64,000 nucleotides of DNA from an uncultured Planctomycetales bacterium (GTDB lineage: Bacteria; Planctomycetota; UBA1135). The stretch spans positions 42,951 to 106,950 of the forward strand of contig CAYFOM010000011.1 in NCBI GenBank assembly GCA_964344765.1, written 5' to 3'. The notes under the pieces are model-generated. The model saw nothing but the letters and a program-made list of their open reading frames with translations, was not told the DNA's origin and ran no database searches. The stretch's first letter is position 1, and every line of letters starts with the position of its first letter. Below, piece after piece: positions 23,500 through 53,467 of the stretch. The translations under genes were made by a program, and so were the position numbers.

Positions 23500-23502
23500 A
23501 GC

Positions 23503-24540: not shown

Positions 24541-24552
24541 CGCTGGGCTTCC

Positions 24553-26534: not shown

Positions 26535-26537
26535 GGT

Positions 26538-29089: not shown

Positions 29090-30594
29090 TTCACTGCCTC
29101 CTCAAGCTCAATCCGATCGTCAAAGGGATGGCGCACGCCGTGGATCTCCTGATACGGCTCGTGCCCCTTGCCGGCGACTAGCAAGACGTCACCGGGTTCA
29201 AGTTGTGCAACTGCTTGTTGAATAGCCAAACGGCGATCCACTTGGCGGTGAATGCGAAGGGCTCCTGCGTCCATAGCGCCTTCTACAACCGCATCCAGAA
29301 TGGCGTCGGGATCTTCGCTGCGCGGGTTGTCGGAGGTGAGCATGCACCAGTCGGCGCCCTCGGCTGCCGCCCGCCCCATCGGCCCACGCTTGACTGGATC
29401 ACGATCACCGCCGGCACCACAGACTATGCCGATGCGCTGCTCCGGATAACTCTTGCGTAGCGCATGCAAAACGCGCTGCAAAGCTTCGGGCGTGTGGGCG
29501 TAGTCGACAAATAAATGCCACGGGGAATGCGGCGCAACGCGCTGCAGACGTCCCGGGGCGGCGTTGGCGGCACAGAGGCCATGCAGACTTTGCTCGATGG
29601 TTAGGCCGGATAAACGCAAGAGTCCAAATGCCAACAACATGTTCTCAGCGTTATGCCTGCCGATGAGTGAGCTGTGCAAAATGCCGCTGCCGAATACGCC
29701 TTGGATTTGCAGTTCCATGCCGTTGGCGGTGGCTTGGTAGCCGGCGGTGAGGTCGGCATCGGAGGTTAGGTCAACCGCCCACGAAAGCATTTTGGATTTT
29801 GCGCCTTTTACTGCATTCCAAATGCGCGAGTCGTCGGCAGGCAGTAACGCAGTGGCGTCCGGGTGCTCAAACAACAGTGCAGCTTTGGCGGCGGCGTAGC
29901 TTTCCAAATCGCCGTGGTAATCGAGGTGATCGTGACTGAGATTGGTCCACCCGATCGCGTCGACGCGCGCCCCTGCCAAACGCTGTTGATGAATGCCATG
30001 CGACGACGCTTCCAACGCCACCGCCTCGGCACCGCGAGCGCGAATGCTGCGCATCCAATCGTGCAATTGATCCGCCGATGGCGTGGTATTCAGCGAATCC
30101 GCCTCTTGCTGCTCAAACCGAAAACCCAAAGTACCGACGCGACCGGCAGCAACGTGGTTGTGATTCCATGCCTGCTCGAGCAGGTGCACGATGGTGCTTT
30201 TGCCATTGGTGCCGGTCACGGCGCTGAGGTGCATTGTGTTGCTGGGATGTCCGGCGAGCACGGCTGCGGCGCGACCGGCTACGGCGGCAACAATTGCATT
30301 GCGGTCAAGCCCGGGCCGCAGCAGCAGGTCGCGGGGAACTTCCAAACGCGGAAGACCGACATCAGCTTGGACGTCCTCTTCGGCGACCAGCCAAGCCACG
30401 GCGCCAGCCGCAATGGCCGCAGGAAGGAACTCCGCTCCATGACTCAGACTGCCCGACAACGCGCAATACAAATCACCCGGACGCACGCGACGCGAATCAA
30501 AGCATGCGCGCCCGACCTCCACGTCGTCGCCGGCATCATGGGCCAGGCGAACTTGTGGGGCCAAGTGTTGCGCCAGGGAGGAAAGTAGCATCAA
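29077..30594 (-). CDS. murE: UDP-MurNAc-L-Ala-D-Glu--2,6-diaminopimelate ligase
   Basis: VTGTNGKSTIVHL P-loop and the DNPRSEDP motif characteristic of MurE. Confidence 0.9.
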   Translation of the reverse strand: MMLLSSLAQHLAPQVRLAHDAGDDVEVGRACFDSRRVRPGDLYCALSGSLSHGAEFLPAAIAAGAVAWLVAEEDVQADVGLPRLEVPRDLLLRPGLDRNAIVAAVAGRAAAVLAGHPSNTMHLSAVTGTNGKSTIVHLLEQAWNHNHVAAGRVGTLGFRFEQQEADSLNTTPSADQLHDWMRSIRARGAEAVALEASSHGIHQQRLAGARVDAIGWTNLSHDHLDYHGDLESYAAAKAALLFEHPDATALLPADDSRIWNAVKGAKSKMLSWAVDLTSDADLTAGYQATANGMELQIQGVFGSGILHSSLIGRHNAENMLLAFGLLRLSGLTIEQSLHGLCAANAAPGRLQRVAPHSPWHLFVDYAHTPEALQRVLHALRKSYPEQRIGIVCGAGGDRDPVKRGPMGRAAAEGADWCMLTSDNPRSEDPDAILDAVVEGAMDAGALRIHRQVDRRLAIQQAVAQLEPGDVLLVAGKGHEPYQEIHGVRHPFDDRIELEEAVKCCS

Positions 30595-38530: not shown

Positions 38531-39241
38531 ATGGCCCAGGACCCCGGCAACCCGTCGCTGCTCGCTTCCGCGCGCGAGTATCTGCTGGAAGAATTGGCGC
38601 AATTAGGTGTCGAGCACCTGGCCCCGGTCCCGCAGCTCGCTTCGGCGTCGCCGACCCCCACGCCATGCGAGCCGCTTGAGCAAATCGCCGCCGAAATCTC
38701 TCAGTGCCGGCAGTGCGAACTTTGCAACACTCGCACCAACACGGTGCCCGGCGACGGTTCCCAGGAAGCACGAGTCGTCTTTGTCGGCGAAGCCCCGGGC
38801 GCGGAAGAAGATCTCCAGGGCCTGCCGTTTGTCGGCCCTGCCGGTCAGCTTTTGACCAAAATCATTGAAGCCGGCATGGGGCTGAAACGGGAGCAGGTTT
38901 ACATCTGCAACATTTTGAAATGTCGGCCGCCGGGCAACCGCGATCCATTGCCCGCAGAAAAATCCGCCTGCACGCCATTCCTGCAACGGCAACTGAAATC
39001 CCTGCAACCGCAGCTAATTATCTGCCTAGGTCGACATGCGGCCAACTACTTACTTGGCAGCGACGAATCCATGTCCAGAATGCGCGGCAAGTTGCACGAA
39101 TCGGCAATGGGCATTCCCATCCTCGCGACTTATCATCCGGCATATCTTCTGCGCACTCCTGCTGCTAAAGTAGATTGCTGGCAAGACATTCAAATCGCCA
39201 TGAAGCATTTAGGTCTCACGCGTCCGGGAGCAGCCCATTGA
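38531..39241 (+). CDS. Uracil-DNA glycosylase, family 4
   Basis: CRQCELC Fe-S motif, [23 protein letters not shown] motif A, and HPAYLLR at the C-terminus. Confidence 0.85.
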
Positions 39242-40203
39242 ACCGAGCCTTAGGTCTGCACTTTCTTGGCGACCAATACGCCTATGCCCTGATTGAAAAA
39301 TCCGCCGACGCTCCGGTACAAGTGCTCGCTGCCGGCAATGTTGAGCAAGAAAAATTAGCCGGCCTATATGACCGCCTTGGCGGCGAACTCAACCTGCCTT
39401 GGTGCTTAGCCGCCGAAGACGACGGCTCCATGTTGTCGCACCTGCCACCTGATTGGCCCCTGCGCCCAATCGAACCCGAGGTCCTGGTGCACCCGGCGAC
39501 GTCGGCCGCTTTGTGGGATTGGGAGCACGGCCGCATTGATGAAAACGACCTCTATCTATGGTTGCGCTCCGGATTCCTGTTATGGGCGCGCGGCATTCCC
39601 GGCCAAGGTCGCTCCGGCTGCTCGGCAAGGCGCGGACCGCTCATTAGTAATTTACGGCCGATTCTCAATCGCTTTCAACGCAATCGCTGCCCCTCCGTGG
39701 TCAGCATGGAGGGCGATGCTCCGGGCGGTGATTACCTCCTGCAAGCCCTCGCAGATGCCGGCCACAGCGTTCGCGAAATCAATCGACCACCGCATGAAAT
39801 GGGCGCCGACCCTGCAGCTGCCGGCGCCGCGTTGGCTGCCATTTCACCCGACTTCCAAGCGGTCTACGTTCCCGAAAAACGGCAGCGTTCGCCCCATTGG
39901 CGTACTGCAATGGGACTCGGCGCGCTGGTGGCAACGCTGACGGCATTGGCATTCACCTTGGGGCAAGAAAGCAATTTGCGCAGCTGGAAGCGCAGCCTGG
40001 AACCGACCGTTCAAAGCGGAGACTCCTCGGCGCCTACTGCCGCAGCGCCTCCTATTGAGTTGGTTCGACTTATTGAACGTCGCACCCAATTCGTGCAAGC
40101 GCTACGCAACCTTTCGGATTCGCCGCCGAACACTTTGGCCGAAGTGGAAATCGTCGCCGCACCGGATGGCTCAACCGTGCGGGATCGAGTGAGGACCAAA
40201 TGA
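39238..40203 (+). CDS. Bitopic GspL / fused PilM-PilN-like inner-membrane protein (cytoplasmic domain + TM + short periplasmic helical domain)
   Basis: About 220-aa cytoplasmic part beginning LGLHFLGDQYAYALIE (like the PilM/GspL first strand). TM helix WRTAMGLGALVATLTALAFTLG. Periplasmic PIELVRLIERRTQFVQALRNL. A TTG start at 39238 overlaps the udg TGA (TTGA). The call is by architecture and context, not by detected homology. Confidence 0.4.
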   Translation: MNRALGLHFLGDQYAYALIEKSADAPVQVLAAGNVEQEKLAGLYDRLGGELNLPWCLAAEDDGSMLSHLPPDWPLRPIEPEVLVHPATSAALWDWEHGRIDENDLYLWLRSGFLLWARGIPGQGRSGCSARRGPLISNLRPILNRFQRNRCPSVVSMEGDAPGGDYLLQALADAGHSVREINRPPHEMGADPAAAGAALAAISPDFQAVYVPEKRQRSPHWRTAMGLGALVATLTALAFTLGQESNLRSWKRSLEPTVQSGDSSAPTAAAPPIELVRLIERRTQFVQALRNLSDSPPNTLAEVEIVAAPDGSTVRDRVRTK

Positions 40204-40790
40204 TGGAACGTTTGTTCACTCACCGCGGCTACTTATTCACCTGCCTCATCCTGGCGCTCCTGATGGCGTGGCTTTGGCAATCGCGGAGTCAGCGTTTTCT
40301 TGCCATGCAGCCCTCGCTGATGGATTTGGAGGAAAGCGAAGTTCCGGCGAGCTTCGCATGGTTGCAACAAGGCTTGGGCAAGTTGGCCACGCCAGCGCCT
40401 GCTATACGCCAAGAAGCGTTTGAGGGCGCAGAAACCATCGGCTGGTCGCACTTAGATTCGACCTCACCCTTAGCGGTAGCCGCGCAAACGGAATTGGCTC
40501 GCTGGGCAAGTCCCGGACGATTGCCGCTGCAAACGCAAACCGTCAGCGTCTCCGAAGTCGAGGGCTTCCCGGCGATGGAGCTCGGAATCGAAGCCAGTGG
40601 CCCGGAGCTGGAAGTCCTCGCTTGGCTGGATCATTTGCTCCACGCCCCAACGGGCGTTGGCTACTTGACCGACCCGGCCGTGGTTCACCTGAGCACGCAA
40701 GACGAAGAATTGCACTTGCGCCTAGCGGTTCGCGTCTGGCCGGCAGTGGCCTTCCTGCGCCAAGGGCTCAATATGGAGGTGCAGGGATGA
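40200..40790 (+). CDS. PilO/GspM-like bitopic membrane protein
   Basis: N-terminal TM helix (YLFTCLILALLMAWLW), a helical segment, then a ~100-aa periplasmic domain. ATGA overlap with the preceding gene. Call by architecture and context. Confidence 0.4.
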   Translation: MMERLFTHRGYLFTCLILALLMAWLWQSRSQRFLAMQPSLMDLEESEVPASFAWLQQGLGKLATPAPAIRQEAFEGAETIGWSHLDSTSPLAVAAQTELARWASPGRLPLQTQTVSVSEVEGFPAMELGIEASGPELEVLAWLDHLLHAPTGVGYLTDPAVVHLSTQDEELHLRLAVRVWPAVAFLRQGLNMEVQG

Positions 40791-41764
40791 AAGACGCCCT
40801 CCTATTCCTGACCTTGCTCGTCACAGCCGCATGCTTGGGCTTGCTCGCCTTCTTGCCGCACCCTGCTGTGGCCGCGCGCAGCCAAAGTCCGCTGCTACTG
40901 GCCGGTGCCGACGGAATCGAGATCGCCGCCGACGTGCCCGCCGAAACTCGCAGCGCTGCATTGACTTCGGCACTCGCAGCCGCGCACCCCGTCGACGGCA
41001 TAGGGCTGAGTAGTGTTTTTGGCTCGGGCAGCAACGGCGACGAGGAAAGCACGCCTGCACTTGGCGAATTTCCGGCGCTGTACCGGCCACGTGTATTGCG
41101 CGCCAACATCCAAGAGGGCGGCGTACGCCTGAGCTGGCTGCCCCACCCGCGCAATCCGATTGACGACTTGGAATACCGCATCGAGCGCTGGAATAGCGCC
41201 GGCTCGCTCGATGCTTCAGTGGTGCTCACCAACACCGAGTACCTGGACCGCCTGGACTGCGAGGGAATTACCTTCCACTACAGGGTTTACGCCGAATTGG
41301 AACGGGCCGCACCGGGCTTGTCCAACGCCGCGGCCCTACGGCGCAGCTCACCGGCCGCTACTACTAAGGTCGCGCTGGCCAAAAAATCGCAGTGGGTTGC
41401 CGACAAATTGATCGACAATGCGACGCTGGTTTTACGTCTGCAGCGCCCCGACCGCCCCGAATTAGGCCCGTTCGAGGCCTCTCCGGGAGAAAAAATTGCA
41501 GATTCCGGCTGGATCCTGGAATCCTTCACGAAGGGCGAAACCGAAGTGCCTACCATGACTAGAATCCCGCGCTTCGATGAGCTGGGACGGCGTGTCATTG
41601 TCGATGACCGTCCTGCCTATCGTGGCCGCGAGGGCACCGAAACACGGCAATTCGTGACCGTTCACCTTCTGGACCCTTGCGGTTCGCCTTGGCGACAAAA
41701 TCTTCTGCTTCCCCCCCCTGTGCGCCGCCACAATGGTGCGCTTCCCCCCGCAGACTCTCACTGA
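40787..41764 (+). CDS. Membrane-anchored periplasmic protein with a fibronectin type III-like domain (PilP position)
   Basis: The start was chosen at MKDALLFLTLLVTAACLGLLAFL (ATGA overlap with the upstream stop). The ORF-track start at 40622 overlaps the previous gene. The FN3-like segment is PRVLRANIQEGGVRLSWLPHPRNPIDDLEYRIERWNS...FHYRVYAEL. Confidence 0.5.
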   Translation: MKDALLFLTLLVTAACLGLLAFLPHPAVAARSQSPLLLAGADGIEIAADVPAETRSAALTSALAAAHPVDGIGLSSVFGSGSNGDEESTPALGEFPALYRPRVLRANIQEGGVRLSWLPHPRNPIDDLEYRIERWNSAGSLDASVVLTNTEYLDRLDCEGITFHYRVYAELERAAPGLSNAAALRRSSPAATTKVALAKKSQWVADKLIDNATLVLRLQRPDRPELGPFEASPGEKIADSGWILESFTKGETEVPTMTRIPRFDELGRRVIVDDRPAYRGREGTETRQFVTVHLLDPCGSPWRQNLLLPPPVRRHNGALPPADSH

Positions 41765-41919
41765 TCACCCCCGTCAGAACCGCGTTCGTCGATCTTACGG
41801 CTTTACTCGCACAAGGCTCTACGGCACAATCCCTAGCCGCAGCTTCCTGAACCCCCAAACCCTGCTGCGCCGGGCCGCCCTCGAATCGCTGCCTAAACGC
41901 ACCTTAGACCCCTCTCTAC

Positions 41920-44517
41920 ATGCGCATTCCCAAGAAGTCCCTGCTTCTTCTGCCCGCTCTGCTCGCCGCCTCCTGCGCGGACCTGGCTGAGAACGAGGTA
42001 GCGAACTCTTCCCCCATGGTCTCCACGGGCGACGCCGTCGACCTGGATTCCAGCGTCACCTATCAAGAGCCTGGCCAGGAGCCGGGTTCGATTGATCCGC
42101 GTGGTGCTTATGGGGACATTGAAGCTCGCAAGCAGAAGCGCCGCCTCCTAGCGAAGAATTACATCTCGCTGGCTGACGGCTTCTTTAACCGTGGCGATTA
42201 CGAAGGTGCTGCCCAGCACTACGCCGACGCCTTCCAGTTGGACCCCGAAAGCCGCGAAGCCCGCGATGGCCTGCGTCGTTCGCAAGCCGCCATGGGTGGT
42301 AACGCCTGGTCGTGGCAAGACGCCGAAGGAATGGTGGATCAGCAAGCCCTGCGCTGGGCTGCTACTCGTCTGAAGGTAGAGGGCCTGATGAACGATGGCG
42401 ACCGCGCCATGGCTCGTGGTGACTTTGCCGACGCCGAGTCTGCTTACACCACCGCGATGCAAACTCTGCGCATCTCGCCGAACGTCGCCAACGACAGCTT
42501 GAACACTTCACTGGTTCAGGCGCGGATGGACGCCGCCAAGGATGCTCGCTACACCCAAATGGAAGCTAAGCGCGCTGCCGAAACCGCAGCCGCCGAAGCC
42601 GACGCCGCTGCTCAGGAAGCCGCCAACCGCGAGTACTTCGAAAACCGCATCCGTACGCTGTTCGGCGAAGCCAACGCTTCGTTCCAGAACGGCTTCTACG
42701 ACAAGGCTGTGGCCACTTTGGACAAGGTGCTGAAGCTGGACCCGAGCAACGCCGATGCGCAAATGCTGCGTGACGTCGCCAACGAAGCTTGGCACGTGGA
42801 GCGCCAGCAGAAAACGGCAACTGCATTCCGCGAAGAGTGGAAGGAAGCCTTCCAGGAAATGCAGCACTTGGCCGTTCCGCCGAAGAGCACCATTGAGTTC
42901 GACGAGGACTACTGGACCAGCGTTGTTGACATTCGCAAGCCGATTGACGAAATCACCGACGAGACCGAAGCCGATCCCGAGCGCGACGCTATCCAGCGCA
43001 TGCTCGACACCACCCAGATTGAAGCTCGCTTCGATCAGCCGGTGGAAGAGGTGGTCGACAACTTGGCTGCTTACACCAACGTAAACTTCGTCGTCTCCCG
43101 CGCGGTGCGCGAAGACATGGACGAAGACGCCAAGCAGGTCAACTTCGCGTTCAACAAGCCGATGCCGGTTTCGCGCATCATGCGCTTGATTGAAGCGCAA
43201 AGTGACAACCAGTTGAAGTTCGTCATCATGAACGGTGCGGTCAACGTGCTGTCCGCTGAAGAGTCGAACTCGGGTCACGTGCTGCGTCAGTACGAAGTGC
43301 GCTCGATCATTCGTCCGTTGCCGGACTTCGATCTGCCGGAAATCACCATCGCCGGTTCGGGCGGTGTGGGATTCGAGCCGGAGCCGATCAACGAAGATCG
43401 TGAAGCCAACCTGCTGACCGAAGACACTCTGCTGACCATCCTCGGCGTCGATGACTGGGAAGAGCCGGCTTACGCTCAGATCCAGGAAGGCACGCTGATT
43501 GTTTACCACCAGCCGGAAAACCAGCAGAACATCCGCGACATCCTTGCTGACCTGCGCAAGTCCACCAACACCTCGGTAGAGATTTCGGTGCGTTTCATGA
43601 AGGTGGAAGACAGCTTCTTGCAGGACATCGGCATTGACTTCCGCGGCTTGGGCAACAACTCGACCCAGGGCATTGATGGTGCCGGCACCAACGTCGCCTT
43701 CGATGACTTCGGTGATGACCCGTCCTCCACCAACATCGGTTCCGACGGTTCCGCTGGTCTGTACTTCTCCGAGGCCGACGACAACATGAACTTGTTGGGT
43801 CGCACCGAGAACTTGTACGACATGGGCTTGGGTCGCACCTCCGACTCCACCGATGACGGTGTCGACGCCTCCGGTGGATTGTCCGCTCAGTGGACTCTGC
43901 TGGACGATGCCGAAGTGCAGATGATTCTGCGCGCCGTCGAGAAGTCGAAGCGTTCGGAAGTGGTCACCGAGCCGAGCTTGATGGTTTACAACGCCACCCG
44001 CGCAACGCTGACCGTTACCAACCAGGTGTCCTACGTCTCGGACTTCGATGTCGAGATTGCGCAGGCTGCCTCGATTGCGGCACCGATCGTTCGCGTGGTC
44101 ATGGACGGCGTCTTCCTCGACGTCACCCCGGTGGTCAGCTCCGACCGTCGTTCGGTTTCCATCGACCTGCGCCCGACGGTTGCAACTCTGCGTCGCCCGA
44201 TCCGGACCTTCCAGACTTCGCTGGGTTCCGGTTCTCCGGTCACCATCATGTTGCCGGAAATCGAGCTGCAGAAGATTCGCACCCGCACCACCGTGCCGGA
44301 CGGCGGCACTGTGTTGGTCGGTGGCTTCAAGATCATTGAGCAGAATGACATGGACTCGGGTGTGCCGTTCCTGAACCGCATTCCGATCCTCAGCTTCTTC
44401 TTCCAGCGTCAAGGAACTTACGAGTCCTACCGTCGCTTGCTGATTCTGCTGACGGCGCGCATCATGATTCCTGATGAGCACGCGCCGGGTCAAGACGCTG
44501 TCGCCAGCGCCAACTAA
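41920..44517 (+). CDS. Secretin-family outer-membrane channel with an N-terminal lipobox and TPR region (secretin 1)
   Basis: LLPALLAASC lipobox-like signal. At least three TPR-like repeats (NRGDYEGAAQHYADAFQLDPES...; QNGFYDKAVATLDKVLKLDPSN). N-domain. C-terminal secretin core VPDGGTVLVGGF...DSGVPFLNRIPILSFFF. Confidence 0.85.
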   Translation: MRIPKKSLLLLPALLAASCADLAENEVANSSPMVSTGDAVDLDSSVTYQEPGQEPGSIDPRGAYGDIEARKQKRRLLAKNYISLADGFFNRGDYEGAAQHYADAFQLDPESREARDGLRRSQAAMGGNAWSWQDAEGMVDQQALRWAATRLKVEGLMNDGDRAMARGDFADAESAYTTAMQTLRISPNVANDSLNTSLVQARMDAAKDARYTQMEAKRAAETAAAEADAAAQEAANREYFENRIRTLFGEANASFQNGFYDKAVATLDKVLKLDPSNADAQMLRDVANEAWHVERQQKTATAFREEWKEAFQEMQHLAVPPKSTIEFDEDYWTSVVDIRKPIDEITDETEADPERDAIQRMLDTTQIEARFDQPVEEVVDNLAAYTNVNFVVSRAVREDMDEDAKQVNFAFNKPMPVSRIMRLIEAQSDNQLKFVIMNGAVNVLSAEESNSGHVLRQYEVRSIIRPLPDFDLPEITIAGSGGVGFEPEPINEDREANLLTEDTLLTILGVDDWEEPAYAQIQEGTLIVYHQPENQQNIRDILADLRKSTNTSVEISVRFMKVEDSFLQDIGIDFRGLGNNSTQGIDGAGTNVAFDDFGDDPSSTNIGSDGSAGLYFSEADDNMNLLGRTENLYDMGLGRTSDSTDDGVDASGGLSAQWTLLDDAEVQMILRAVEKSKRSEVVTEPSLMVYNATRATLTVTNQVSYVSDFDVEIAQAASIAAPIVRVVMDGVFLDVTPVVSSDRRSVSIDLRPTVATLRRPIRTFQTSLGSGSPVTIMLPEIELQKIRTRTTVPDGGTVLVGGFKIIEQNDMDSGVPFLNRIPILSFFFQRQGTYESYRRLLILLTARIMIPDEHAPGQDAVASAN

Positions 44518-44527
44518 ACCAGCACGA

Positions 44528-44567
44528 GGCCGGGAGCAGGAGCGCACGATGTGCGTCGCTCCCGGCC
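44528..44567 (+). other. GC-rich hairpin just after secretin 1 (no U-tract)
   Basis: GGCCGGGAGC (44528-37) pairs with GCTCCCGGCC (44558-67). There is an inner GCAC-GAT-GTGC stem. It is followed by the CCTTCCCCCCCC motif. Confidence 0.35.
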
Positions 44568-44609
44568 TTCGCCGTTACCTTCCCCCCCCTCCGCACTAAA
44601 TCCTGACCC

Positions 44610-47456
44610 ATGCTTTTCTCGGTCGGAATCCTTGCCTCCGCTGCCCTGTTCGCACCGCAACAAGGTGAAGAAGGAAGCGCTGCCATTCAGAAAGACGCTG
44701 CTTTTGCGCTGGCGTTAACTAAGCAGCTAGGCTTCAGCAGCTTCTCCGAAATGGTGATTGACGACGCGATGGACCGCGCGTCAAGCGCCGAAGATCGCAG
44801 TTCGCTGCTGCTCGCCCGTTGCCAGATTCTGGAAACGGTGGCGGTACGCCCCGGCACTCCCACCGAGGAAGTAGCTGGTTGGCGCTCCGCAGCAGACGCT
44901 TACATCGAATTCATCGCCTCCAAGCCTGCCCAAGCACAGGGCGTCACGGCGCGCCTGCAGCTGGGCTTCGTCGGCTTTCAATACGGCGAGAAGGTCTACA
45001 GCATGTTCGAGAGCACCACTCCGGACAGCGCAACCCGTCAGACCATGCTGGAAGATGCGGAGAAGACCTTCCAGGAATCCCTGACCGCGATTAACTGGAC
45101 CATCGATTGGTGGCGCAGCTTGGATGACCCGGATCACAAAGAGGGTGCCAAGTACACCGTCTTCTTCCCGGCTTCGTTCTACCGCGCGCTGACCTACCAC
45201 TACTGGGGCATGCTCTACCCCGCCGGTTCAGTCGAGCGTGAAGACAACATCGCGCGCGCGCTGGAGTTCCTTGAGGACTTCGCCATTACCGCCGGTGAGA
45301 ACACTCGCGCCGGTTTGCTGGCTTACAAGCACATGGGCGATGGCTTTGTTGCTTTAGGCGATTACGAAATGTCGGATGAACTGTACGACTTCGTCATCGT
45401 CGAAGGTGTGCCTGATGGCGCCGATAAGGTCATGACCCCAGGCGAAATCAGGGGTCGCCGCAACGCTCAGCAAGATGCCTGGCTAGGCCGCATGCTGATG
45501 TTTGAATCGGCCGGCCGTGCTGGTGAAATCCCGGCCCTGGGTGCAACCTTCCAACAGTGGGTTGCTGATAACCGCGTCGCGCTGAACGACTCCGGCTATC
45601 GCGTGCAAATGGCCGTGGCCAAAAACATGATCGCCGACGGCAACTTCGGCGACGCCATCACCTTGCTGCAAGCTGTTGCCGCTGCCAACGAAGGCAAGCT
45701 GCTGCGCCTCGAAGCGGATGCTTTGCTGGGTGATGCTATTGCCGCTGCCCCTCCGGGAGCCGCAATTAACTTGGACGTACTGTTCCAAGCCGGACAAGGC
45801 GCTTACTACTCGAAGAACTACCAAGAGGCGTCGAAAAACCTGCGCCTGCTGATTTCGCGCCTCGACGCCAGTTCGCAAGCGCAAGCCGTCGGCGGTAAGG
45901 CTTACTACTTCCTCGGCCGCGCCCTGGAAGATGACGAGCTGACCCTGGAAGCTGCCGTGGCCTACAGCAAGGGCTATGAAATGTTCTCCGATGATGAGGA
46001 GAACGCCGAAAAGCTGGCTTCGCGCTGGCACAAGTTGGCCGAGCGCTTCCGCAATGCGGATCCGACCGACAACTACCTCGACAACTTCTACAACAACGCG
46101 CTGGATGCGCTGAAGGAGTCGTCGGGAGGCGGTGCCCCCCACGTGGTCATGCTGCGTTCGGCGGATACCGACTACAACCTGGCCAAGGCTGCGTCGCGCA
46201 ACGCTCGCGGCAAGCCGGCTAGCTCGCAAGAAGCTAAGGACGCAATCAAGGCGTTTGACAAAGCCATTCTTTCGTACCGCCGCGTCGATCGCGGAACCGA
46301 GAGTTTCGAGAAAGCCACCGTGCAAATCGGCCTGTGCGAATTCAACAAGTTCGCTTGGCAGCCGCTGGCGATGGATCGCGCGATTGAGGCGTTTGAGGAT
46401 TACCTGAACGTCTACACCAAGGATCAGAACTTCTTGCCGAACACGCCTAAGGGCAAAAAGTATCGCAAAGACTCGATTGCCAAAGCCGACTTCTACCTCG
46501 GCCGCTCCTACCGCAACATGGCCGCCGCCGGCGACCTGACCGCATGGGACAAGATGCTCGAGCACTTCGATGGTTTCGAGCAGCGCCAGGAGGGTCAGGA
46601 TGACCAGATTGGTGCCGCCAAGACTTACCGCACCGAGGCTTACTTGGCCACCGGCCGTGAAGACGAAGCAGTCGGCCAATACGAGAGCCTGGTCGCTTCC
46701 GGCGCGCGCTCGACGTGGCTGAACTCCTGCTCCTTCAAGTTGTACGTTTACTTCAAGGGCAAGATCGATGCCGAAGAAGACATGGAGGCGAAGCTGCCGT
46801 GGCAGCGCAAGGCGGTGAAGTACTTGCAGGTGGCCAACTCGCAAGACCCGCGACCGAAGTGGCAAAACTTGCTGACCGAAGGCCGTCTGTACTTGGCCAT
46901 CGGTGACATTGCTACCGGCACCAAGGTGCTTGAGAACACTTTGCAGCGCTTCGGCCCGGCCGACGGTTTTGATGGTAGCTCGCGTTTCTTCGCGGAAACC
47001 GACCTAATTCAGGCTTACCTCGAGCAGGGCAACACCGGCACCGCGGTGCCGCTGATGGACAAGCTGCTGAAAGAGCGTCCCAAGAACCTGCGCGTCATGT
47101 CGATGGCCATCCGCATTAAGACCGGCTTCCCGGTGGTGCGCGAAGGTCGCGTCGTCAAGGTGCCCGGTGAAGACACCATCGAGGCTTACCAAACCGCTGA
47201 GAAGCTGATTGGCGACTTGCTGCAGCTGGCCGAGCGTAAAGCACTGGACGCCGACAAGAGTAAGTTTGAGCTCAAGGAATGGTGGGAAGCCAAGCTTCAA
47301 CACGTTTACTTGGTCTACAAGTGGAGCCTCAAGGACTCCACCAAGGATCACAAGAAGCTGCTGAGATCCATTGAGCAGCTCGCACCTGACTTCGGTGAAT
47401 CGGTCACCGGGCCGGAAACCAAGCGCATCTTCACGTGGCTCAAGACCCAAGGTTAA
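44610..47456 (+). CDS. Large secreted all-TPR/helical-repeat protein (948 aa)
   Basis: N-terminal signal-like MLFSVGILASAALFAPQQ. Numerous TPR-like A-x-x-x-Y/F...G-x-x-x-x-A repeats throughout. No enzymatic motif seen. Confidence 0.7.
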   Translation: MLFSVGILASAALFAPQQGEEGSAAIQKDAAFALALTKQLGFSSFSEMVIDDAMDRASSAEDRSSLLLARCQILETVAVRPGTPTEEVAGWRSAADAYIEFIASKPAQAQGVTARLQLGFVGFQYGEKVYSMFESTTPDSATRQTMLEDAEKTFQESLTAINWTIDWWRSLDDPDHKEGAKYTVFFPASFYRALTYHYWGMLYPAGSVEREDNIARALEFLEDFAITAGENTRAGLLAYKHMGDGFVALGDYEMSDELYDFVIVEGVPDGADKVMTPGEIRGRRNAQQDAWLGRMLMFESAGRAGEIPALGATFQQWVADNRVALNDSGYRVQMAVAKNMIADGNFGDAITLLQAVAAANEGKLLRLEADALLGDAIAAAPPGAAINLDVLFQAGQGAYYSKNYQEASKNLRLLISRLDASSQAQAVGGKAYYFLGRALEDDELTLEAAVAYSKGYEMFSDDEENAEKLASRWHKLAERFRNADPTDNYLDNFYNNALDALKESSGGGAPHVVMLRSADTDYNLAKAASRNARGKPASSQEAKDAIKAFDKAILSYRRVDRGTESFEKATVQIGLCEFNKFAWQPLAMDRAIEAFEDYLNVYTKDQNFLPNTPKGKKYRKDSIAKADFYLGRSYRNMAAAGDLTAWDKMLEHFDGFEQRQEGQDDQIGAAKTYRTEAYLATGREDEAVGQYESLVASGARSTWLNSCSFKLYVYFKGKIDAEEDMEAKLPWQRKAVKYLQVANSQDPRPKWQNLLTEGRLYLAIGDIATGTKVLENTLQRFGPADGFDGSSRFFAETDLIQAYLEQGNTGTAVPLMDKLLKERPKNLRVMSMAIRIKTGFPVVREGRVVKVPGEDTIEAYQTAEKLIGDLLQLAERKALDADKSKFELKEWWEAKLQHVYLVYKWSLKDSTKDHKKLLRSIEQLAPDFGESVTGPETKRIFTWLKTQG

Positions 47457-47466
47457 GGAGAAAGCA

Positions 47467-48552
47467 ATGATTCCCCTACTCAGCATTCTTCTGGCACTGC
47501 CGCTGGCCGCCCAAGGCCGCGTGGTCAAGCTGGATGGCTCCAGCATTCCCGGCAACATCACTGCCGCGACGTTGGAGAAGGTCGAAATCTCCGCTGCAGG
47601 CGGAGCCACCGAAATCCCTGCCGGCGACGTTTTGCGCCTGCAGTTTGGCAGTGATCCGGCGATCATCACTCAAGCCAAGGGTTACTTGGCCAAGTTGGAG
47701 TTCCAAAACGCCATCAACCTATTGAGTGAGGCAGAAGGCCAAAGCGATCCGGCTTGGTTGCCACCGTACGCCAAGCTGCTCAAGGCCGAGGCGCTGTTGT
47801 CGTGGTCGGCATTTGACGCCGGTCGCGCATCGGCCGCTCAATCGGCCTTCGATGAGTGGCTCGCCACCTACCCCGACCACTTTTGGCAAGCACGCGCCCG
47901 CATGGGCCAGGCCAAAGCCATGGGTCGCGCCGGCAAGGTGCAAGATGCCGGCAAATTGATGCAAGATCTTGCTAGCTTCAGCTTCGACAAGAACTTGGGC
48001 AAGCATGTCGAGTTCGGCGCCCGCCTCACTCGCTGCGAAATCTACCTCGACGGCAAGGAGCCGACCCTGGCCAAGCAGCGCCTGGAAGGCAGCAACGGCT
48101 TGGTGGCCACACTGAAGGCCGCGTCGACGGCACCCGACGCCCCGACCGCCCTGCGCACCATGATGCACGGCTACTGGGTACGCGCCCAAATCCTGCTCGG
48201 CGATTCGATCGAGCAGGCAGATGGCCTGGATAAGGCTAAAAGCCACTGGGAGCGCGTCTTGCGCACGGAAAAGCAGCTTTCGGATGACGCTCGCGCCACC
48301 GGCAAGATCGTCATTGCGCGTGCTTCGCGCGACGCCGGCAAGCTGCGGGAAGCGCAATTTGCTTTGGCAGAAATTGCCGCAACCCTGAACTGCGGGCCGG
48401 ATACTATGGCCCGAGCCTTGTTTACGCTCGGCGAAGTTTGCCAGGAATTGGGTGACAAGCCCACCCCTGGAACCACCTACTTCCGCCGCATCGTAGAACG
48501 CTATCCTGCGTCGGCTTGGGCGGCCAAAGCCCGTAAAAAACTAGGCAACTAG
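47467..48552 (+). CDS. Secreted TPR protein (361 aa) with a small N-terminal beta domain
   Basis: The start was chosen at MIPLLSILLALPLAAQG (ATG at 47467), preceded by AAGGAG (47455-60) overlapping the upstream TAA. TPR repeats (e.g. GKLREAQFALAEIAATL, YFRRIVERYPASAWAAKARKKL). Confidence 0.7.
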   Translation: MIPLLSILLALPLAAQGRVVKLDGSSIPGNITAATLEKVEISAAGGATEIPAGDVLRLQFGSDPAIITQAKGYLAKLEFQNAINLLSEAEGQSDPAWLPPYAKLLKAEALLSWSAFDAGRASAAQSAFDEWLATYPDHFWQARARMGQAKAMGRAGKVQDAGKLMQDLASFSFDKNLGKHVEFGARLTRCEIYLDGKEPTLAKQRLEGSNGLVATLKAASTAPDAPTALRTMMHGYWVRAQILLGDSIEQADGLDKAKSHWERVLRTEKQLSDDARATGKIVIARASRDAGKLREAQFALAEIAATLNCGPDTMARALFTLGEVCQELGDKPTPGTTYFRRIVERYPASAWAAKARKKLGN

Positions 48553-48687
48553 GACCTGCCCCCGCAGGTTCCCTGAAAACCCCTACCCACCTCAAACCAG
48601 GATCGCGCTAGACTTGCCTCCCGCGAATCCAGGGCCGGCCCCCGTCGGCTCTACCTGAACCTTCCCCCCACGAACAAGTAACCCTCG

Positions 48688-49419
48688 ATGTCTCGTCTTC
48701 GACTCATCTTCACTGCTTCAGCTGGTTTCCTGCTGACCTCCACCTTTGCCCTCGCCCAAGAAGGGGCCGCAGCAGCCGATGCTGCAGCCGATTCCGGCGG
48801 CGGCGTCGACATCATGGAGGCGATCTCCGCAGCCGGTACGATCGGTTATCTGATCATCGGTATGTCCATGGTCGCTGGTGCTCTGATCATCGAGCACTTC
48901 ACCAGCATCAAGCGCGACAAGCTTGCTCCGCCGGAGACCATCGACGAGATCGAAGAACTGCTTGCTGAAGGCAACTACCAGGAAGCCCTGGACCTGTGCG
49001 AAGCCGAGCCTTGCTTCTTCACCAACGTCTGCGCTTCCGGTATCCGCAAGATCGGTCACCCGTTCGAAGCTCTGGAGAAGTCCGTTGAAGAGATGGAAGA
49101 CGAGGAGTCGGTCAAGCTTCAGCAGAAGATTGGCTGGTTGTCCTTGATCGCAGGTATCGGCCCGATGATGGGTCTGTTCGGAACTGTGACCGGCATGGTG
49201 GGTGCGTTTGCCACGATTGCAGACGCTGCAGGTGGTGTAGAGCCGTCTGACTTTGCAGGTGACATCTCGATGGCGCTGATGACCACCGTGTTGGGTCTGA
49301 CTGTGGCTATCCCGACCACCGCTTTCTACGCTTTCTTCAAGAACAAGGTGACTCTGACTTCGCTCGAGATCGGCGCCATCATTGAAGAAATGTTTGAGCG
49401 TTTCCGTCCCGCCGAATAA
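48688..49419 (+). CDS. exbB: MotA/TolQ/ExbB family proton-channel protein
   Basis: The three-TM layout and LSLIAGIGPMMGLFGTVTGMVGAF...MALMTTVLGLTVAIPTTAFYAFFKNKV are hallmark ExbB/TolQ motifs. Confidence 0.85.
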   Translation: MSRLRLIFTASAGFLLTSTFALAQEGAAAADAAADSGGGVDIMEAISAAGTIGYLIIGMSMVAGALIIEHFTSIKRDKLAPPETIDEIEELLAEGNYQEALDLCEAEPCFFTNVCASGIRKIGHPFEALEKSVEEMEDEESVKLQQKIGWLSLIAGIGPMMGLFGTVTGMVGAFATIADAAGGVEPSDFAGDISMALMTTVLGLTVAIPTTAFYAFFKNKVTLTSLEIGAIIEEMFERFRPAE

Positions 49420-49422
49420 GTA

Positions 49423-49950
49423 ATGTCACAAAGAGGAAGACAGACATCGGAAGTCGAGGTCGATATGACCCCGATGATCGACTTGACCTTTTTGTTGATC
49501 ATCTTCTTCATCATCGTGAACGACCTCACGCAGCAGGAGCTTGAAGACCTCAAGCTTCCTGTTGCCCAGAAAGCCGGTCACGACGATCCGCCTCCAGGCC
49601 GCCCCATTCTCAACGTCATGGAGGATGGAACGATCATCTGGAAGAAACAGCAGATCTACTGGCCCGGCATTCAGCCGCAAGGAACGGACCCGATCCGCAA
49701 GAATCGTCCGGACCACTACTGGCTGCTGGCGGAAACGATGAAGTTGAATTTCTTGCCCTGGATGAAGTACGAAAAGGATGAAGCGCTCGGCTTGGATTTG
49801 CCGGACGAACCCATCCTGATCCGTGCGGACCGGAACACCCCGTTCCGCTACATCCAGCGCATCATGGAAGTGTGCTCGCGCAAGGACATTCTGATCTGGA
49901 AGGTTCAGTTGGCCGCGTCCGAGCCGGTTACCGCCACCGAAGGACAGTAA
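49423..49950 (+). CDS. exbD: ExbD/TolR family protein 1
   Basis: VDMTPMIDLTFLLIIFFII (conserved Asp in the TM helix) and a periplasmic ILIRADRNTPFRYIQRIMEV domain. 3-nt gap after exbB. Confidence 0.8.
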   Translation: MSQRGRQTSEVEVDMTPMIDLTFLLIIFFIIVNDLTQQELEDLKLPVAQKAGHDDPPPGRPILNVMEDGTIIWKKQQIYWPGIQPQGTDPIRKNRPDHYWLLAETMKLNFLPWMKYEKDEALGLDLPDEPILIRADRNTPFRYIQRIMEVCSRKDILIWKVQLAASEPVTATEGQ

Positions 49951-49962
49951 TAGGAGGAAGAG

Positions 49963-50502
49963 ATGACCAGAAGAATGAAAAATGAATTCGAAGAGGTCAA
50001 GCCGGACATGACGCCAATGATTGACGTCACCTTCCTGTTGCTGATTTTCTTCATCGTGACGCTGAAGTTCAAAACGTTGGAAGGTCGCTTGGACTCCAAC
50101 CTGCCGAAGGACATGGGTACCAGCAATGCGCCCACAGATCCGGTGGAAAAGGTGGACATCGTCATTCGCGTGGGTAACCCAGGCACCAAACAGCCTGACC
50201 CGGCAACGCGCACCAAGTCGAAGCCTCAGGGCCGCTTGGAGCACTTCCGCAACCGCATTTTGAAGGTTTCAGTGGGTACTGCAGTCTTCCAGGTTCGCAA
50301 CGACGTCCACAACTCGGACGGCCTGCTGCAAGACCTCGATAAGCTGCGCCGCGCACTGAAACCCTTCGATAAGGAGGAGACTCCGGTGACCCTCGATGCT
50401 CGTGAAGGCATCATTTACGAGGACGTCATCGGCATTTTGGACCTAGTCATCGACCAAGGCTTCCAAAAGGTGTCGTTCTCCGGTTCGCAAGAACAAGGTT
50501 AA
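49963..50502 (+). CDS. exbD: ExbD/TolR family protein 2
   Basis: PDMTPMIDVTFLLLIFFIV and C-terminal LDAREGIIYEDVIGILDLV. AGGAGG lies 5 nt upstream of the ATG. Confidence 0.8.
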   Translation: MTRRMKNEFEEVKPDMTPMIDVTFLLLIFFIVTLKFKTLEGRLDSNLPKDMGTSNAPTDPVEKVDIVIRVGNPGTKQPDPATRTKSKPQGRLEHFRNRILKVSVGTAVFQVRNDVHNSDGLLQDLDKLRRALKPFDKEETPVTLDAREGIIYEDVIGILDLVIDQGFQKVSFSGSQEQG

Positions 50503-50509
50503 ATCTTTT

Positions 50510-50537
50510 CAGGGCCTCGACTTCGGTCGGGGCCCTG
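50510..50537 (+). terminator. 12-bp hairpin with a UUCG tetraloop after exbD2 (weak terminator, attenuator or mRNA stabiliser)
   Basis: CAGGGCCTCGAC-TTCG-GTCGGGGCCCTG, with one G-U pair. It is followed only by CCTTTCCC, not a real U-tract. Confidence 0.4.
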
Positions 50538-50753
50538 GCCTTTCCCTCACCGGCAGCCAGCAACGGCATTCGCCACCTGCCCAAACCGGTTCCCCCCTCA
50601 AAACATGCCGACCCTCGCGCTCCCTCCCAGTCAAGCGCTATCGGCAAAAAAAGAAGCCCCTTCCGCTGCGTTCAACGTGGCGAACGCGGAGCGGCGCTGC
50701 TAAATTCCTGAACCTGATTTCGGTTCCTCGAGCCGTCGGATACCCCTGCGTCC

Positions 50754-53408
50754 ATGAACAAGCACCTGATCCCGGTTGCCAGCCTGGCCCTGCCCTTGGT
50801 CTTTTTGACCGCGGGCTGTGGCTCAAGCGTCCCCCAAGAAGACCTCGACCAGACCACCACGGCAGATACCGCGGTGGACAACAACGATGCCTTCGGCCCC
50901 AGCAACGCCAGCGCTCCTACTGAGAGCGTTGCCCAGGAGCCTGGCCAAGGCGACCTGGTGCAAACTGCTGTAAAGGCGAAAAACCTGAAGGAGCAGAAGA
51001 TTGCGCTGCTGATTGATGAGCGCCTCTCCAACGCTCGTTCGGCTTACGCCGACGGTCGTTTTGAGGACGCCGCCAACCAGTTGCAGCTCGCTCTGCAACT
51101 CGACCCCACCCACCGCGAGACTCGTTCGTTGTTGACCGACGTGCAAATCGCCATGGGTACGTCGACCAAGGCGGAAGCTGGCTACGAAGCTCAAACCATC
51201 CTCAAGCGCAAGCTTGAGATGCTGAAGGCGGAAGCCCACTCCAACGCCGAGAAGGGCGCCCAACAGCTGGCTGAAGGCGACTACCAAAGCGCCATCACCA
51301 GCTTGATGCTGGCCCGCGCCACCATCGACGGCACGCCTTACAACATTGACTGGGGAACCCTCGGTGCCGAAGTCGGTGCCAACTTGGAGAAGGCTTTGGC
51401 CGATCAAGAGCTGGCGATGGCCTCTCAACTCCAGGAAGAGCGTCAGTCCACTTTCCGCTCACTACAGGAAGAGGAAGAAGCTCGTCAGGCTAAGACGGAA
51501 GCTCGTCAGGCAATGATGCTGCAGGAAGCCATCGAGGCTTACTCGCTGGAAGACTTCGAGCGCACCATCACCTTGACTGAAGAGATTCTGCGCGTCGATC
51601 CGCTCGACGTACGCGCCGCTGAGTTGCGCGACGTCGCAGTGAAGACTCGCCACGAGTTGGTTGCCGAAAGCTTCGTCACCGACCGCCAAGAGCGCTTCCG
51701 CCTGTGGTTGGAAGAGATCGAAGAAAGCCGCGTGCTTCAGAACGATCTTTACTCCGCTCCGGACCAGGAATACTGGAACGAGATTTCCGAAAAGCGTGCT
51801 TCCTACGGTAACTTCGCTTCCGGCGAATCCGCCGATCCGGAGAACGTCGCCATCGCCGTCGCCATGGGTGAAACCCGCATTCCGGGCTTGGCCTTGGATG
51901 GCGTCACTGATCTGCGCGAGGTCATCGACCAGTTGTCCGCCAACGCCGACAACATCCCCTTCTTGGTCAACAACGCTGCTGCCGACGCCGTCGATAGCGA
52001 AGGCATTGAGTTCTCGATGACCCTGGGCTCCTCCATCACCGTGTTGAACGCGTTGGAGCTGATCACTCAGGCTGCCGGTGAAGAGGTGGTTTACACCATC
52101 AACAACGGCGCGGTACACATCACCACTCGTGAGAACGCTTTCGGTCAGGTTGTGACCAAGCCGCACGACATTCAGGACCTGACCATTCAGTTCACTGACT
52201 TTGCTGGTCCGCGGATCGACACCATCTGGTTGCCGGATACCGAAGCCAACGAAGAAGAAGAAGGTTCGATCTACGGTGGCCCGTTCGGTGAGCCGCGTAC
52301 CTTGGTCAACCCGGACGAAATTGCCGACACCGTGATGGCAACCGTCGCCCCGGGCACCTGGGATGACAACACTGCCGAGTACGCCAACGGTTATTTGATC
52401 GTCAAGCACACCCCCGCCGTGCAGCAGCAGGTGGATGACTTCCTCCAGGACCTGCGTCGCTATAACGCTTCGATGGTCTCGATTGAAGCTCGCTTCCTGA
52501 CGATCCAGAAGGACTTCATGAAAGAGATTGGTTTGGACTTCCGCGGCTTGGGTGGTTTCCCGGACGCGAACGACCTGATCGACCTCGACGACGTGATCTC
52601 CGGTGGCGATGACAATTCGTCGGCCGGTCTGGATAACAACGGTAACGGCCTGGGCGACACCAACCCGTCGGCTGGTTTCTTCTTCGACGAAGCTGGTCGC
52701 TGGTCCACTCGCGCCCGTACCGAGAACATGCTCGGCAACTACGGCACCGAGCGCATGTCGGCCGCTGGTGGCTTGACCATGCAGTTCGCCTTCCTGGACG
52801 ATGCCCAGACCTCGCTGATTCTGCGCGCTGTTGAGAAGAACAACCGCTCGCAGGAACTGAACAGCTCCAACATCATGGCGCAGAACACGCAGCGCGCCTT
52901 CATGACGGTGCTAAACCAGGTCACTTACATTCAGGACATGGACGTGGAAGTCGCGCAGGCGGCCTCCGTTGCTGACCCGGTCATCGGCGTAGTTTCGGAC
53001 GGCATCGTCATCGACGTGCGCCCGATCATCTCCCACGACCGCAAGTACATCACGCTGGAGCTGCAGCCGACGGTTGCCACCCTGCTGCGTCCGATTCCGG
53101 AATTCACCTCTTCGCTGTCTGGTCTGACCACCCCGGTCACCCTGCAGCTGCCGGAACTGTTCATCGCTTCTGCGAAGACCAACGCCATCGTGCCGGACGG
53201 CGGTACCGTCGTCATCGCTGGTCTGCGCAAGCTGCTGAACATCGAGCAACGCGCCGAGATCCCCTTCTTGGCCAAGATCCCGATCCTGTCGGTCCTCTTC
53301 AAGACCGAAGGTGAGGCTTACGAGAACGAAGACATCATCGTTCTGATCCGCGCTCAGATTCTGGATACTTCGGAACTCAAAGACAACTTGGACGCACGTC
53401 GCAACTAA
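50754..53408 (+). CDS. Secretin-family outer-membrane channel with an N-terminal lipobox and TPR region (secretin 2, paralog of secretin 1)
   Basis: LVFLTAGC lipobox. TPR-like repeats (ADGRFEDAANQLQLALQLDPTH; LEDFERTITLTEEILRVDPLD). C-terminal secretin core VPDGGTVVIAGL...EIPFLAKIPILSVLF. It is collinear with secretin 1 (RFxxxxxxFxxxIGxDFRGLG, LRAVEK, RPTVATL). Confidence 0.85.
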   Translation: MNKHLIPVASLALPLVFLTAGCGSSVPQEDLDQTTTADTAVDNNDAFGPSNASAPTESVAQEPGQGDLVQTAVKAKNLKEQKIALLIDERLSNARSAYADGRFEDAANQLQLALQLDPTHRETRSLLTDVQIAMGTSTKAEAGYEAQTILKRKLEMLKAEAHSNAEKGAQQLAEGDYQSAITSLMLARATIDGTPYNIDWGTLGAEVGANLEKALADQELAMASQLQEERQSTFRSLQEEEEARQAKTEARQAMMLQEAIEAYSLEDFERTITLTEEILRVDPLDVRAAELRDVAVKTRHELVAESFVTDRQERFRLWLEEIEESRVLQNDLYSAPDQEYWNEISEKRASYGNFASGESADPENVAIAVAMGETRIPGLALDGVTDLREVIDQLSANADNIPFLVNNAAADAVDSEGIEFSMTLGSSITVLNALELITQAAGEEVVYTINNGAVHITTRENAFGQVVTKPHDIQDLTIQFTDFAGPRIDTIWLPDTEANEEEEGSIYGGPFGEPRTLVNPDEIADTVMATVAPGTWDDNTAEYANGYLIVKHTPAVQQQVDDFLQDLRRYNASMVSIEARFLTIQKDFMKEIGLDFRGLGGFPDANDLIDLDDVISGGDDNSSAGLDNNGNGLGDTNPSAGFFFDEAGRWSTRARTENMLGNYGTERMSAAGGLTMQFAFLDDAQTSLILRAVEKNNRSQELNSSNIMAQNTQRAFMTVLNQVTYIQDMDVEVAQAASVADPVIGVVSDGIVIDVRPIISHDRKYITLELQPTVATLLRPIPEFTSSLSGLTTPVTLQLPELFIASAKTNAIVPDGGTVVIAGLRKLLNIEQRAEIPFLAKIPILSVLFKTEGEAYENEDIIVLIRAQILDTSELKDNLDARRN

Positions 53409-53430
53409 GTCTTCGGTCATCCGAAACCAA

Positions 53431-53467
53431 GGACCTTCCCCCCTCGGGAAGGTCCTTTTCTTTTTTG
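53431..53467 (+). terminator. Rho-independent terminator of the secretin cluster
   Basis: 10-bp stem GGACCTTCCC / GGGAAGGTCC, 5-nt loop, then TTTTCTTTTTTT. It lies 23 nt after the secretin 2 stop. Confidence 0.8.

Follow-up and report, generated by a model that had tools for sequence, protein, structure and literature searches.

What does a proton motor drive when one ExbB gene is followed by two different ExbD genes, no TonB gene is at hand, and the whole set is enclosed by two secretin genes? This question is raised by a contig of an uncultured Planctomycetales bacterium (CAYFOM010000011.1), of which a stretch of 64,000 nucleotides, here called the window, was analysed. The set in question is a five-gene block at positions 44610-50502 of the window that encodes two tetratricopeptide repeat (TPR) proteins, denoted TPR948 and TPR361, followed by ExbB, ExbD1 and ExbD2. 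These five genes form one ancient module common to Planctomycetota and Verrucomicrobiota. We tentatively favour, as the best available explanation that nevertheless falls somewhat short of probable, a proton motor of the type encoded in mucin utilization locus 1 (MUL1) of Akkermansia, in which the TPR proteins would be scaffolds and which would work with the flanking secretins in polymer transport.

All five genes are encoded on the same strand. TPR948 (44610..47456, +) is a periplasmic giant TPR or alpha-solenoid protein with a hydrophobic, signal-like N-terminus and weak Pfam TPR matches, and in TPR361 (47467..48552, +) a signal peptide and a small beta domain of six strands precede a TPR array. 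They are followed by the ExbB/TolQ-type proton channel subunit (48688..49419, +; 243 amino acids (aa), with a cleavable-looking signal peptide; PF01618, 1.6e-25), ExbD1 (49423..49950, +; 175 aa; PF02472, 4.7e-16) and ExbD2 (49963..50502, +; 179 aa; PF02472, 1.1e-15), the latter two each with the membrane Asp. The first-pass annotation, made from the letters of the window, had described one ExbB and two distinct ExbD proteins that both retain this Asp, and the Pfam matches agree, as does the D-M-T-P-M-I-D motif, which is present in both ExbD1 and ExbD2 and is, including the Asp, at least 90% conserved among 38 ExbD1 and 46 ExbD2 orthologues. The likeness between ExbD1 and ExbD2 is confined to the membrane segment (17/22 residues); their periplasmic parts do not align, and that of ExbD1 carries a lineage-specific insert. 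Scored against all NCBIfam ExbB and ExbD equivalogs, the window proteins fall below every cut-off. The plausible start of TPR361 is the ATG at 47467 (361 aa), 10 nt past the TPR948 stop, with an AAGGAG that overlaps this stop ahead of the ATG. The same annotation took this to be the only clearly coupled junction of the block, which is too narrow, because ExbB and ExbD1 are separated by 3 nt, and ExbD1 and ExbD2 by 12 nt, with a strong AGGAGG Shine-Dalgarno motif 7 nt before the ExbD2 ATG. In some families, three or four ExbD genes follow ExbB (L024, L026, L036, L046, L047, L049, L055), and at L055 the ExbD pair is apparently duplicated, in the order D1-D2-D1-D2.

Relatives outside Planctomycetota were found in Akkermansiaceae, among Verrucomicrobiota genomes retrieved with a published Akkermansia rpoB primer (loci L080-L082 from an uncultured Akkermansia species, Luteolibacter sp. 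AS25 and one Akkermansiaceae genome). There, four genes come after the best ExbB homologue: two for ExbD proteins, the first of ExbD1 type and the second of ExbD2 type (types assigned by the best fit to the ExbD1 versus the ExbD2 profile), one for a 998-1110-aa TPR protein, and one for a 310-347-aa protein in which a signal peptide and an N-terminal stretch that is apparently rich in beta structure precede TPR-like helices. When compared with hhalign, the small protein matches the TPR361 family (95.8%, E 8e-9; 210 aligned columns from the beta domain on), compared to 1.4% for the TPR948 family, and the giant TPR protein matches the TPR948 family moderately (78.9%, E 1.6e-5). Judged by these profile comparisons, the window block is homologous to the Akkermansiaceae five-gene module, and the window holds the complete MUL1-type set of ExbB, two unlike ExbD proteins, a giant TPR protein and a small protein that combines beta and TPR parts. 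This relative of the block outside Planctomycetota, recognized by sequence, is new here. The Akkermansiaceae gene order fits the locus tags Amuc_0543-0547, within which mul1A, a 'mucin transport gene', is Amuc_0544 (bioRxiv 10.1101/2025.02.20.639370) and Amuc_0546 is listed as a 'biopolymer' transporter (PMC11480725); going by this locus-tag order, the five Akkermansia genes appear to be mucin utilization locus 1. That such a module is required for the uptake of a polymer comes from genetics in Akkermansia alone, where both the use and the import of mucin depend on mul1A.

Within Planctomycetota, the block is recurrent across many families and is not a local oddity. Gene order is conserved in 20/20 loci, which include many other families, and runs from a uracil-DNA glycosylase (UDG) gene through about 3 kb to secretin 1, giant TPR, small TPR, ExbB, ExbD1, ExbD2 and secretin 2, with the orthology of secretins 1 and 2 and of ExbD1 and ExbD2 retained; the variation within these loci consists of occasional extra ExbD copies or one inserted gene before secretin 2. 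Relatives at 44-68% TPR361 identity have the same block, and 16 further loci, picked where the secretin search had failed, share the same core, mostly with divergent secretins. The secretin pair was detected in 207 of the 301 sampled Planctomycetota genomes (E<=1e-40), and ExbB lies at most 10 kb from a cluster secretin in ~56 of ~66 genomes, by a hand tally of the genomes with both positions listed. Both TPR genes adjoin ExbB-ExbD1-ExbD2 in every planctomycete locus examined, so that the two TPR genes are the most constant partners of the motor. The exception to the arrangement as a whole is family f11, represented by two complete ~9.4-Mb genomes (G008 and G176, loci L050/L051), where TPR-TPR-ExbB-ExbD1-ExbD2 is intact and the secretins are megabases away. 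In the literature on planctomycete secretins together with ExbD, and on crateriform structures together with secretins, no description of the cluster was found.

The secretins that enclose the module in the window are themselves a pair. Secretin 1 (41920..44517, +) is of lipoprotein type and 865 aa long, with TPRs at the N-terminus and a secretin domain at the C-terminus (PF00263, 5.9e-26; TPR_2, 1.1e-12); secretin 2 (50754..53408, +), of 884 aa, likewise combines N-terminal TPRs with a secretin domain (PF00263, 8.7e-22) and has a lipobox (LTAGC). The two are paralogs, 31% identical and collinear over the full length, and across families the orthologues of secretin 1 stay distinct from those of secretin 2. 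The NCBIfam model NF042912 (Amuc_1098_fam; cut-off 750) gives 112.7 bits for secretin 1 and 60.5 bits for secretin 2, scores by which the window secretins are relatives of the Amuc_1098 family and not members of it; the PilQ model TIGR02515 gives 97.9 bits compared to a cut-off of 284. An intrinsic-terminator-like hairpin with a 12-bp stem followed by the T-run TTCTTTTTT closes the cluster after secretin 2 (53429..53467, +). The interval between ExbD2 and secretin 2 is a 251-nt spacer in the window. At seven other loci (L025, L026, L030, L033, L034, L035, L055), from several families, the insertion at this place encodes a protein of 600-690 aa that belongs to the sulfatase family (PF00884) and ends in a TPR region, and close relatives of the window (L004/L005) have a pyridoxal-dependent decarboxylase at this gap.

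The comparison with Akkermansia extends to the secretins. Each Akkermansia genome (G301, G306-G309) encodes two TPR-secretins of the Amuc_1098 family, detected with the NCBIfam model; secretin 1 as a single query produced no match in Akkermansia. Thus, the window cluster shares with MUL1 and MUL2 (Amuc_1098-1102) the five homologous genes and two TPR-secretins, of which secretin 1 resembles the Amuc_1098 family. However, the gene order in Akkermansia is permuted, with the TPR genes following the motor, and the secretins and pilus-like genes are located elsewhere (in G301, the secretins are on contigs other than that of the motor), whereas the window has a single same-strand block. The two Akkermansia secretins per genome mirror the secretin 1/secretin 2 pair of Planctomycetota.

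The window motor is not the only one in its genome. On contig C50 (16179-25967), a second module starts with a 1003-aa TPR protein, continues with ExbB and only one ExbD, and ends with a 1260-aa protein. The latter combines N-terminal repeats, TolB-like as judged by eye, with a membrane helix, a long disordered linker and a globular domain at its C-terminus. The C50 ExbB-ExbD pair is the more canonical one, scoring 99 and 101 bits against Pfam compared to 91 and 54 for the window pair. In the ExbB tree, the window ExbB groups with the cluster ExbBs of other families, apart from the C50 paralog, and lineages that lack the secretins are left unplaced. A second Akkermansia ExbB (L083), after which one ExbD and a TPR protein are encoded, is closer to the C50 type than to the window type, which suggests that both motor types predate the split of Planctomycetota and Verrucomicrobiota.

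The ~3 kb between the UDG gene and secretin 1 hold three genes that bring a pilus into consideration. Gene 1 (39175..40203, +; 342 aa), the start of which overlaps the family-4 UDG gene (38531-39241), encodes a bitopic protein whose single membrane helix lies near residue 245; gene 2 (40200..40790, +; 196 aa) encodes an N-terminal membrane helix and is PilO/GspM-like in position and topology; gene 3 (40787..41764, +; ~325 aa) encodes an N-terminal membrane helix, a linker, an FN3-like domain and a C-terminal beta region. Gene 3 is conserved immediately before secretin 1 and is homologous to its counterparts, as detected with a profile derived exclusively from sequences of other families (E 4.7e-9); its profile yields weak FN3 matches in PDB. 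Genes 1 and 2 have no family match in Pfam or NCBIfam. In other families, the position of gene 1 is taken by a ~500-aa protein that matches PilM structures in profile searches (3jc8, 6.4e-17; 2ych; 5eox) and continues into a membrane helix and a coiled region; by these features, it is a predicted PilM-PilN fusion. No sequence link connects window genes 1 and 2 to their positional counterparts of other families (1.8% in hhalign for gene 2). A PilM assignment of window gene 1 was withdrawn because the earlier iterative profile mixed seeds and clean tests were negative, so that position and topology are what suggest a PilM/N/O-like trio in the window. A bitopic protein with an FN3-like domain is also encoded downstream of the f11 motor, next to a SurA-type chaperone-like protein and a small Ras-like GTPase, all recognized by eye only. 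A gene-3-like protein beside the f11 motor does not match the gene 3 profile.

The predicted PilM-PilN fusion of other families is one reason to consider that the motor could assist the assembly or positioning of a type IVa pilus, acting on the N-terminal domains of the secretins and transporting no cargo. A precedent is known: PocAB-TonB3, homologues of ExbB, ExbD and TonB, are needed for pilus assembly and localisation in P. aeruginosa, where the motor thus has a functional link with the type IVa pilus machinery and the secretin of that machinery, and PilQ's N0 domain is similar to the signalling domain of FpvA (PMC5285504). The genome also has a pilus-like gene block (pilB-pilT-pilB-pilC-like, on contig C3) that lacks a secretin or PilM of its own. 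However, a TonB paralog and a single ExbD belong to the Poc system, which lacks TPR partners and whose genes do not lie next to pilMNOPQ, whereas the window block contains no TonB3-like gene. The block was searched for pilins, an assembly ATPase and a platform protein, and none was found; the T2SSE ATPases of the genome are on contigs C3, C12 and C48. On C12 and C48 they belong to other secretin/ATPase sets, and the other PilM-like genes of the genome lie beside other secretins and ATPases. Furthermore, Akkermansia, which has the same module, is non-motile (PMC12418764), and the module is linked to mucin import there. We therefore consider a role as a pilus helper improbable, though not negligibly so.

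The two TPR proteins, as the constant partners, were also examined by structure prediction. The AlphaFold2 (AF2) model of TPR948 is a solenoid of ~45 helices and one small hairpin (predicted local distance difference test score, pLDDT, 88), and in that of TPR361, built from a 22-sequence alignment (pLDDT 91.9), a signal-like N-terminus precedes a beta domain of six strands (residues 18-59), after which TPR helices follow. The two TPR genes upstream of the motor had been described as encoding secreted all-helical proteins; the pair stands, and the description does not fit TPR361 with its beta domain. In Foldseek searches, both models matched only generic TPR scaffolds (TM-score <=0.5). The matches of both include 9hmf_K and 8gl8_I, which at this TM-score is no evidence of specific kinship. 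In several motors with 5:2 stoichiometry, including the Campylobacter flagellar motor (9hmf chain K), type IX secretion (SprE/PorW) and Tol-Pal (CpoB), periplasmic TPR scaffolds join a proton-driven stator to the outer membrane, but the likeness of the window TPR proteins to these is generic. Full-length relatives of TPR361 are present in many Planctomycetota families, and profile searches that extended beyond this phylum returned matches in Planctomycetota only. Both TPR proteins have signal-peptide-like N-termini and lack a membrane anchor; they look like soluble periplasmic proteins that would be unable to dock on an ExbB pentamer in the way the TonB helix does. Any force transfer to them would thus have to occur beyond the ExbD periplasmic domains.

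It is through TPR361 that a substitute for Tol-Pal enters the picture, in which the module would stabilise or constrict the outer membrane and TPR361 would act like CpoB/YbgF. The C-terminus of TPR361 matches TIGR02795 (tol_pal_ybgF; 3.8e-10), the best NCBIfam match of ExbB is tolQ, and relatives of both TPR proteins bear the JGI label 'TolA-binding protein'. In addition, a Tn-seq study of P. limnophila (PMC10632474) reports as essential one of five MotA/TolQ/ExbB paralogs and one gene of the ExbD group Plim_3760/3133/3805, as well as one of the adjacent hypothetical genes Plim_3134/3759; any of the ExbB/ExbD sets Plim_3131-3134, 3759-3762 and 3805-3807 may be the secretin-linked or the essential one. 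All of the matches are far below their cut-offs, however (tolQ, 66.3 bits compared to 221; tolR, 31-36 compared to 127; ybgF, 40.4 compared to 90.1). Of the set TolQ-TolR-TolA-TolB-Pal-CpoB, the block has no gene for TolA, TolB or Pal, and the C50 module with its TolB-like propeller protein is a better candidate for this role, which makes a Tol-Pal substitute in the window unlikely by a wide margin.

The combination of one TolQ-type with two TolR-type subunits and TPR-rich envelope proteins is known from AglR-AglQ-AglS, the motor that, with the Glt proteins, drives surface gliding of Myxococcus, a parallel drawn in the first-pass annotation. The 1:2 subunit count indeed holds in the window, and TPR proteins are present. 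The resemblance is superficial in other respects: Glt uses the TonB-like GltG/GltJ and outer-membrane barrels rather than secretins, whereas in the block no Glt-type barrels, GltG/GltJ parts or TonB_C domain were identified, secretins being encoded instead, and the module is conserved in non-motile Akkermansia. A gliding motor is accordingly the least credible of the alternatives, with hardly any probability left to it. A similar gene content is found in clusters of the Planctomycetota-Verrucomicrobiota-Chlamydiota (PVC) bacteria that comprise a gene for a TPR protein, one tolQ-like gene, two heterologous tolR-like genes and a vWA transducer, described in a study that does not mention secretins (Mol Biol Evol 2025, PMC12204202). 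Like the window block, these clusters combine a TPR gene with one TolQ/ExbB-like and two unlike TolR/ExbD-like genes and have no adjacent TonB or TolA. They differ in that no membrane-anchored vWA transducer follows ExbD2 in the window or in ~40 related loci. Such a transducer was rejected as a partner of the window motor: none is adjacent, and the only vWA protein of the window is encoded 35 kb away (5883-9017, -). The N-terminus of this 1044-aa protein resembles an anti-sigma factor; the protein further contains a single membrane helix, a long disordered linker and vWF_A/VWA/YfbK_C domains, and has no TonB-like helix motif.

The main rival to a role in polymer transport is a plain Ton function: a housekeeping motor that energises TonB in trans, with TPR proteins that are accessory, like Vibrio TtpD or CpoB, and with inherited synteny as the cause of the position between secretins. 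The motor families are those of Ton systems, and ExbB and ExbD with the membrane Asp are present. Two-ExbD Ton operons with a TPR gene exist in other bacteria, Vibrio TonB2 with TtpD being an example. The observation that no TonB or TonB-dependent receptor is encoded nearby was confirmed, as neither TonB_C nor the receptor (Plug) domain was detected on the window contig. A search of the genome (the assembly is 88% complete) located a single TonB_C gene, which lies on contig C35 and immediately follows a gene for a TonB-dependent receptor, while C20 carries a second Plug gene; the cell is therefore not TonB-less, and the window motor may energise the C35 TonB. In three near-complete genomes (G064, G167 and G264), the cluster ExbB is the only PF01618 gene, and TonB_C and Plug are present, so that there the motor must power TonB, if TonB works. 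Given the TonB and receptor on C35, the second ExbB-ExbD pair on C50 and these sole-ExbB relatives with TonB, the proposal that the TPR proteins replace TonB is not borne out.

Nevertheless, several lines of evidence do not fit a Ton motor and nothing else. The motor is not encoded with a cognate TonB, and no TonB gene was found in or beside the block in ~40 related loci; unlike a typical Ton operon, the block has two unlike ExbD proteins and two dedicated TPR proteins. No TonB_C match was detected in 38 of the 207 cluster-bearing genomes, and one relative (G168; 3 contigs, 91% complete) has one ExbB and keeps the cluster with neither TonB_C nor Plug, such that the module persists where TonB and receptors are undetectable. 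The genome of the window has a more canonical ExbB-ExbD pair on C50 for the task, and in Akkermansia the homologous module is linked to the uptake of mucin rather than of siderophores. The simplest reading is that the motor has a TonB-independent core role and is able to serve TonB too; a plain Ton function as the full account appears doubtful, about one chance among several.

For the core role, we propose that ExbB would enclose one copy each of ExbD1 and ExbD2 in a proton channel, that proton flow via the two conserved Asp residues would move the unlike periplasmic domains of the two ExbD proteins, and that the two soluble TPR proteins would serve as scaffolds or adaptors passing this work outward. 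Because the module is encoded between paired secretins, behind a putative PilM/N/O-type inner-membrane scaffold, with no ATPase or pilin, the likely target would be an envelope machine built on secretins that uses the proton-motive force to move large polymers, probably inward; the motor may also energise a TonB encoded elsewhere. The gene content and conservation of the module are observed directly, whereas the heteromeric ExbD arrangement, the contacts of the TPR proteins with ExbD and with the secretins, the direction of transport and the cargo are parts that we infer.

Several observations weigh against polymer transport through the secretins. What connects the motor to the secretins is gene order, and the conservation of the unrelated UDG gene at the locus implies that synteny here need not mean shared function, a point that also speaks for a Ton role. 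In family f11, as well as in Akkermansia, motor and secretins are not linked, window genes 1 and 2 have no sequence link to PilM/N/O, and the mapping to MUL1 was made from the order of locus tags in a related Akkermansia species. The genomes in which the cluster ExbB is the only one available to TonB make an ordinary Ton role, at least in part, likely. The idea, advanced when the block was first described, that the TPR proteins link the stator to the flanking secretins thus survives in part: the TPR pair is constant with the motor and a link to the secretins is plausible, the link itself being a matter of gene order.

A bolder version of polymer transport is that the cluster encodes an undescribed envelope machine, in which a heteromeric ExbB-ExbD1-ExbD2 motor, acting via soluble TPR adaptors and not TonB, would open or drive the secretin pair and pull large polymers into an enlarged periplasm. 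This we regard as speculative, with clearly lower probability than the general reading. Secretins are channels of ATP-driven export systems or pili, and a secretin pair that runs on a proton motor without an ATPase would represent a different mode of powering and possibly a route of import. Whole polysaccharides are taken up by planctomycetes through a route that is unknown (PMC11131199), and Akkermansia needs the MUL genes for mucin import, by a mechanism that is also unknown. If the bolder version is true, the cluster would provide the long-sought molecular basis of macromolecule uptake in planctomycetes and would represent the Akkermansia MUL system in its ancestral, fused form. The presence of five MUL1-type genes inside a secretin cluster across the phylum offers both fields one concrete, testable model, and in the 'fused' planctomycete version the partners can be read from gene order. 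The case also bears on the role of the many TonB-less ExbB/ExbD motors in bacteria.

Some further features of the window and its relatives were recorded. The UDG gene heads the cluster in most planctomycete loci, and a UDG-like gene is also found in Akkermansia (L080:13005-14018), 2.3 kb from the ExbB module. The CCTTCCCCCC motif, with one mismatch allowed, occurs in 5 copies in the window compared to 4.4 expected by chance, all five in or near gene boundaries of the cluster (41707-53443). Elsewhere in the window, a cell-wall synthesis block (21252-32444, -) includes murB, Mur ligases, murG, ftsW-type and mraY-type genes and a penicillin-binding protein gene; the murG and ftsW-type genes are separated by an inserted one for a LysM protein.

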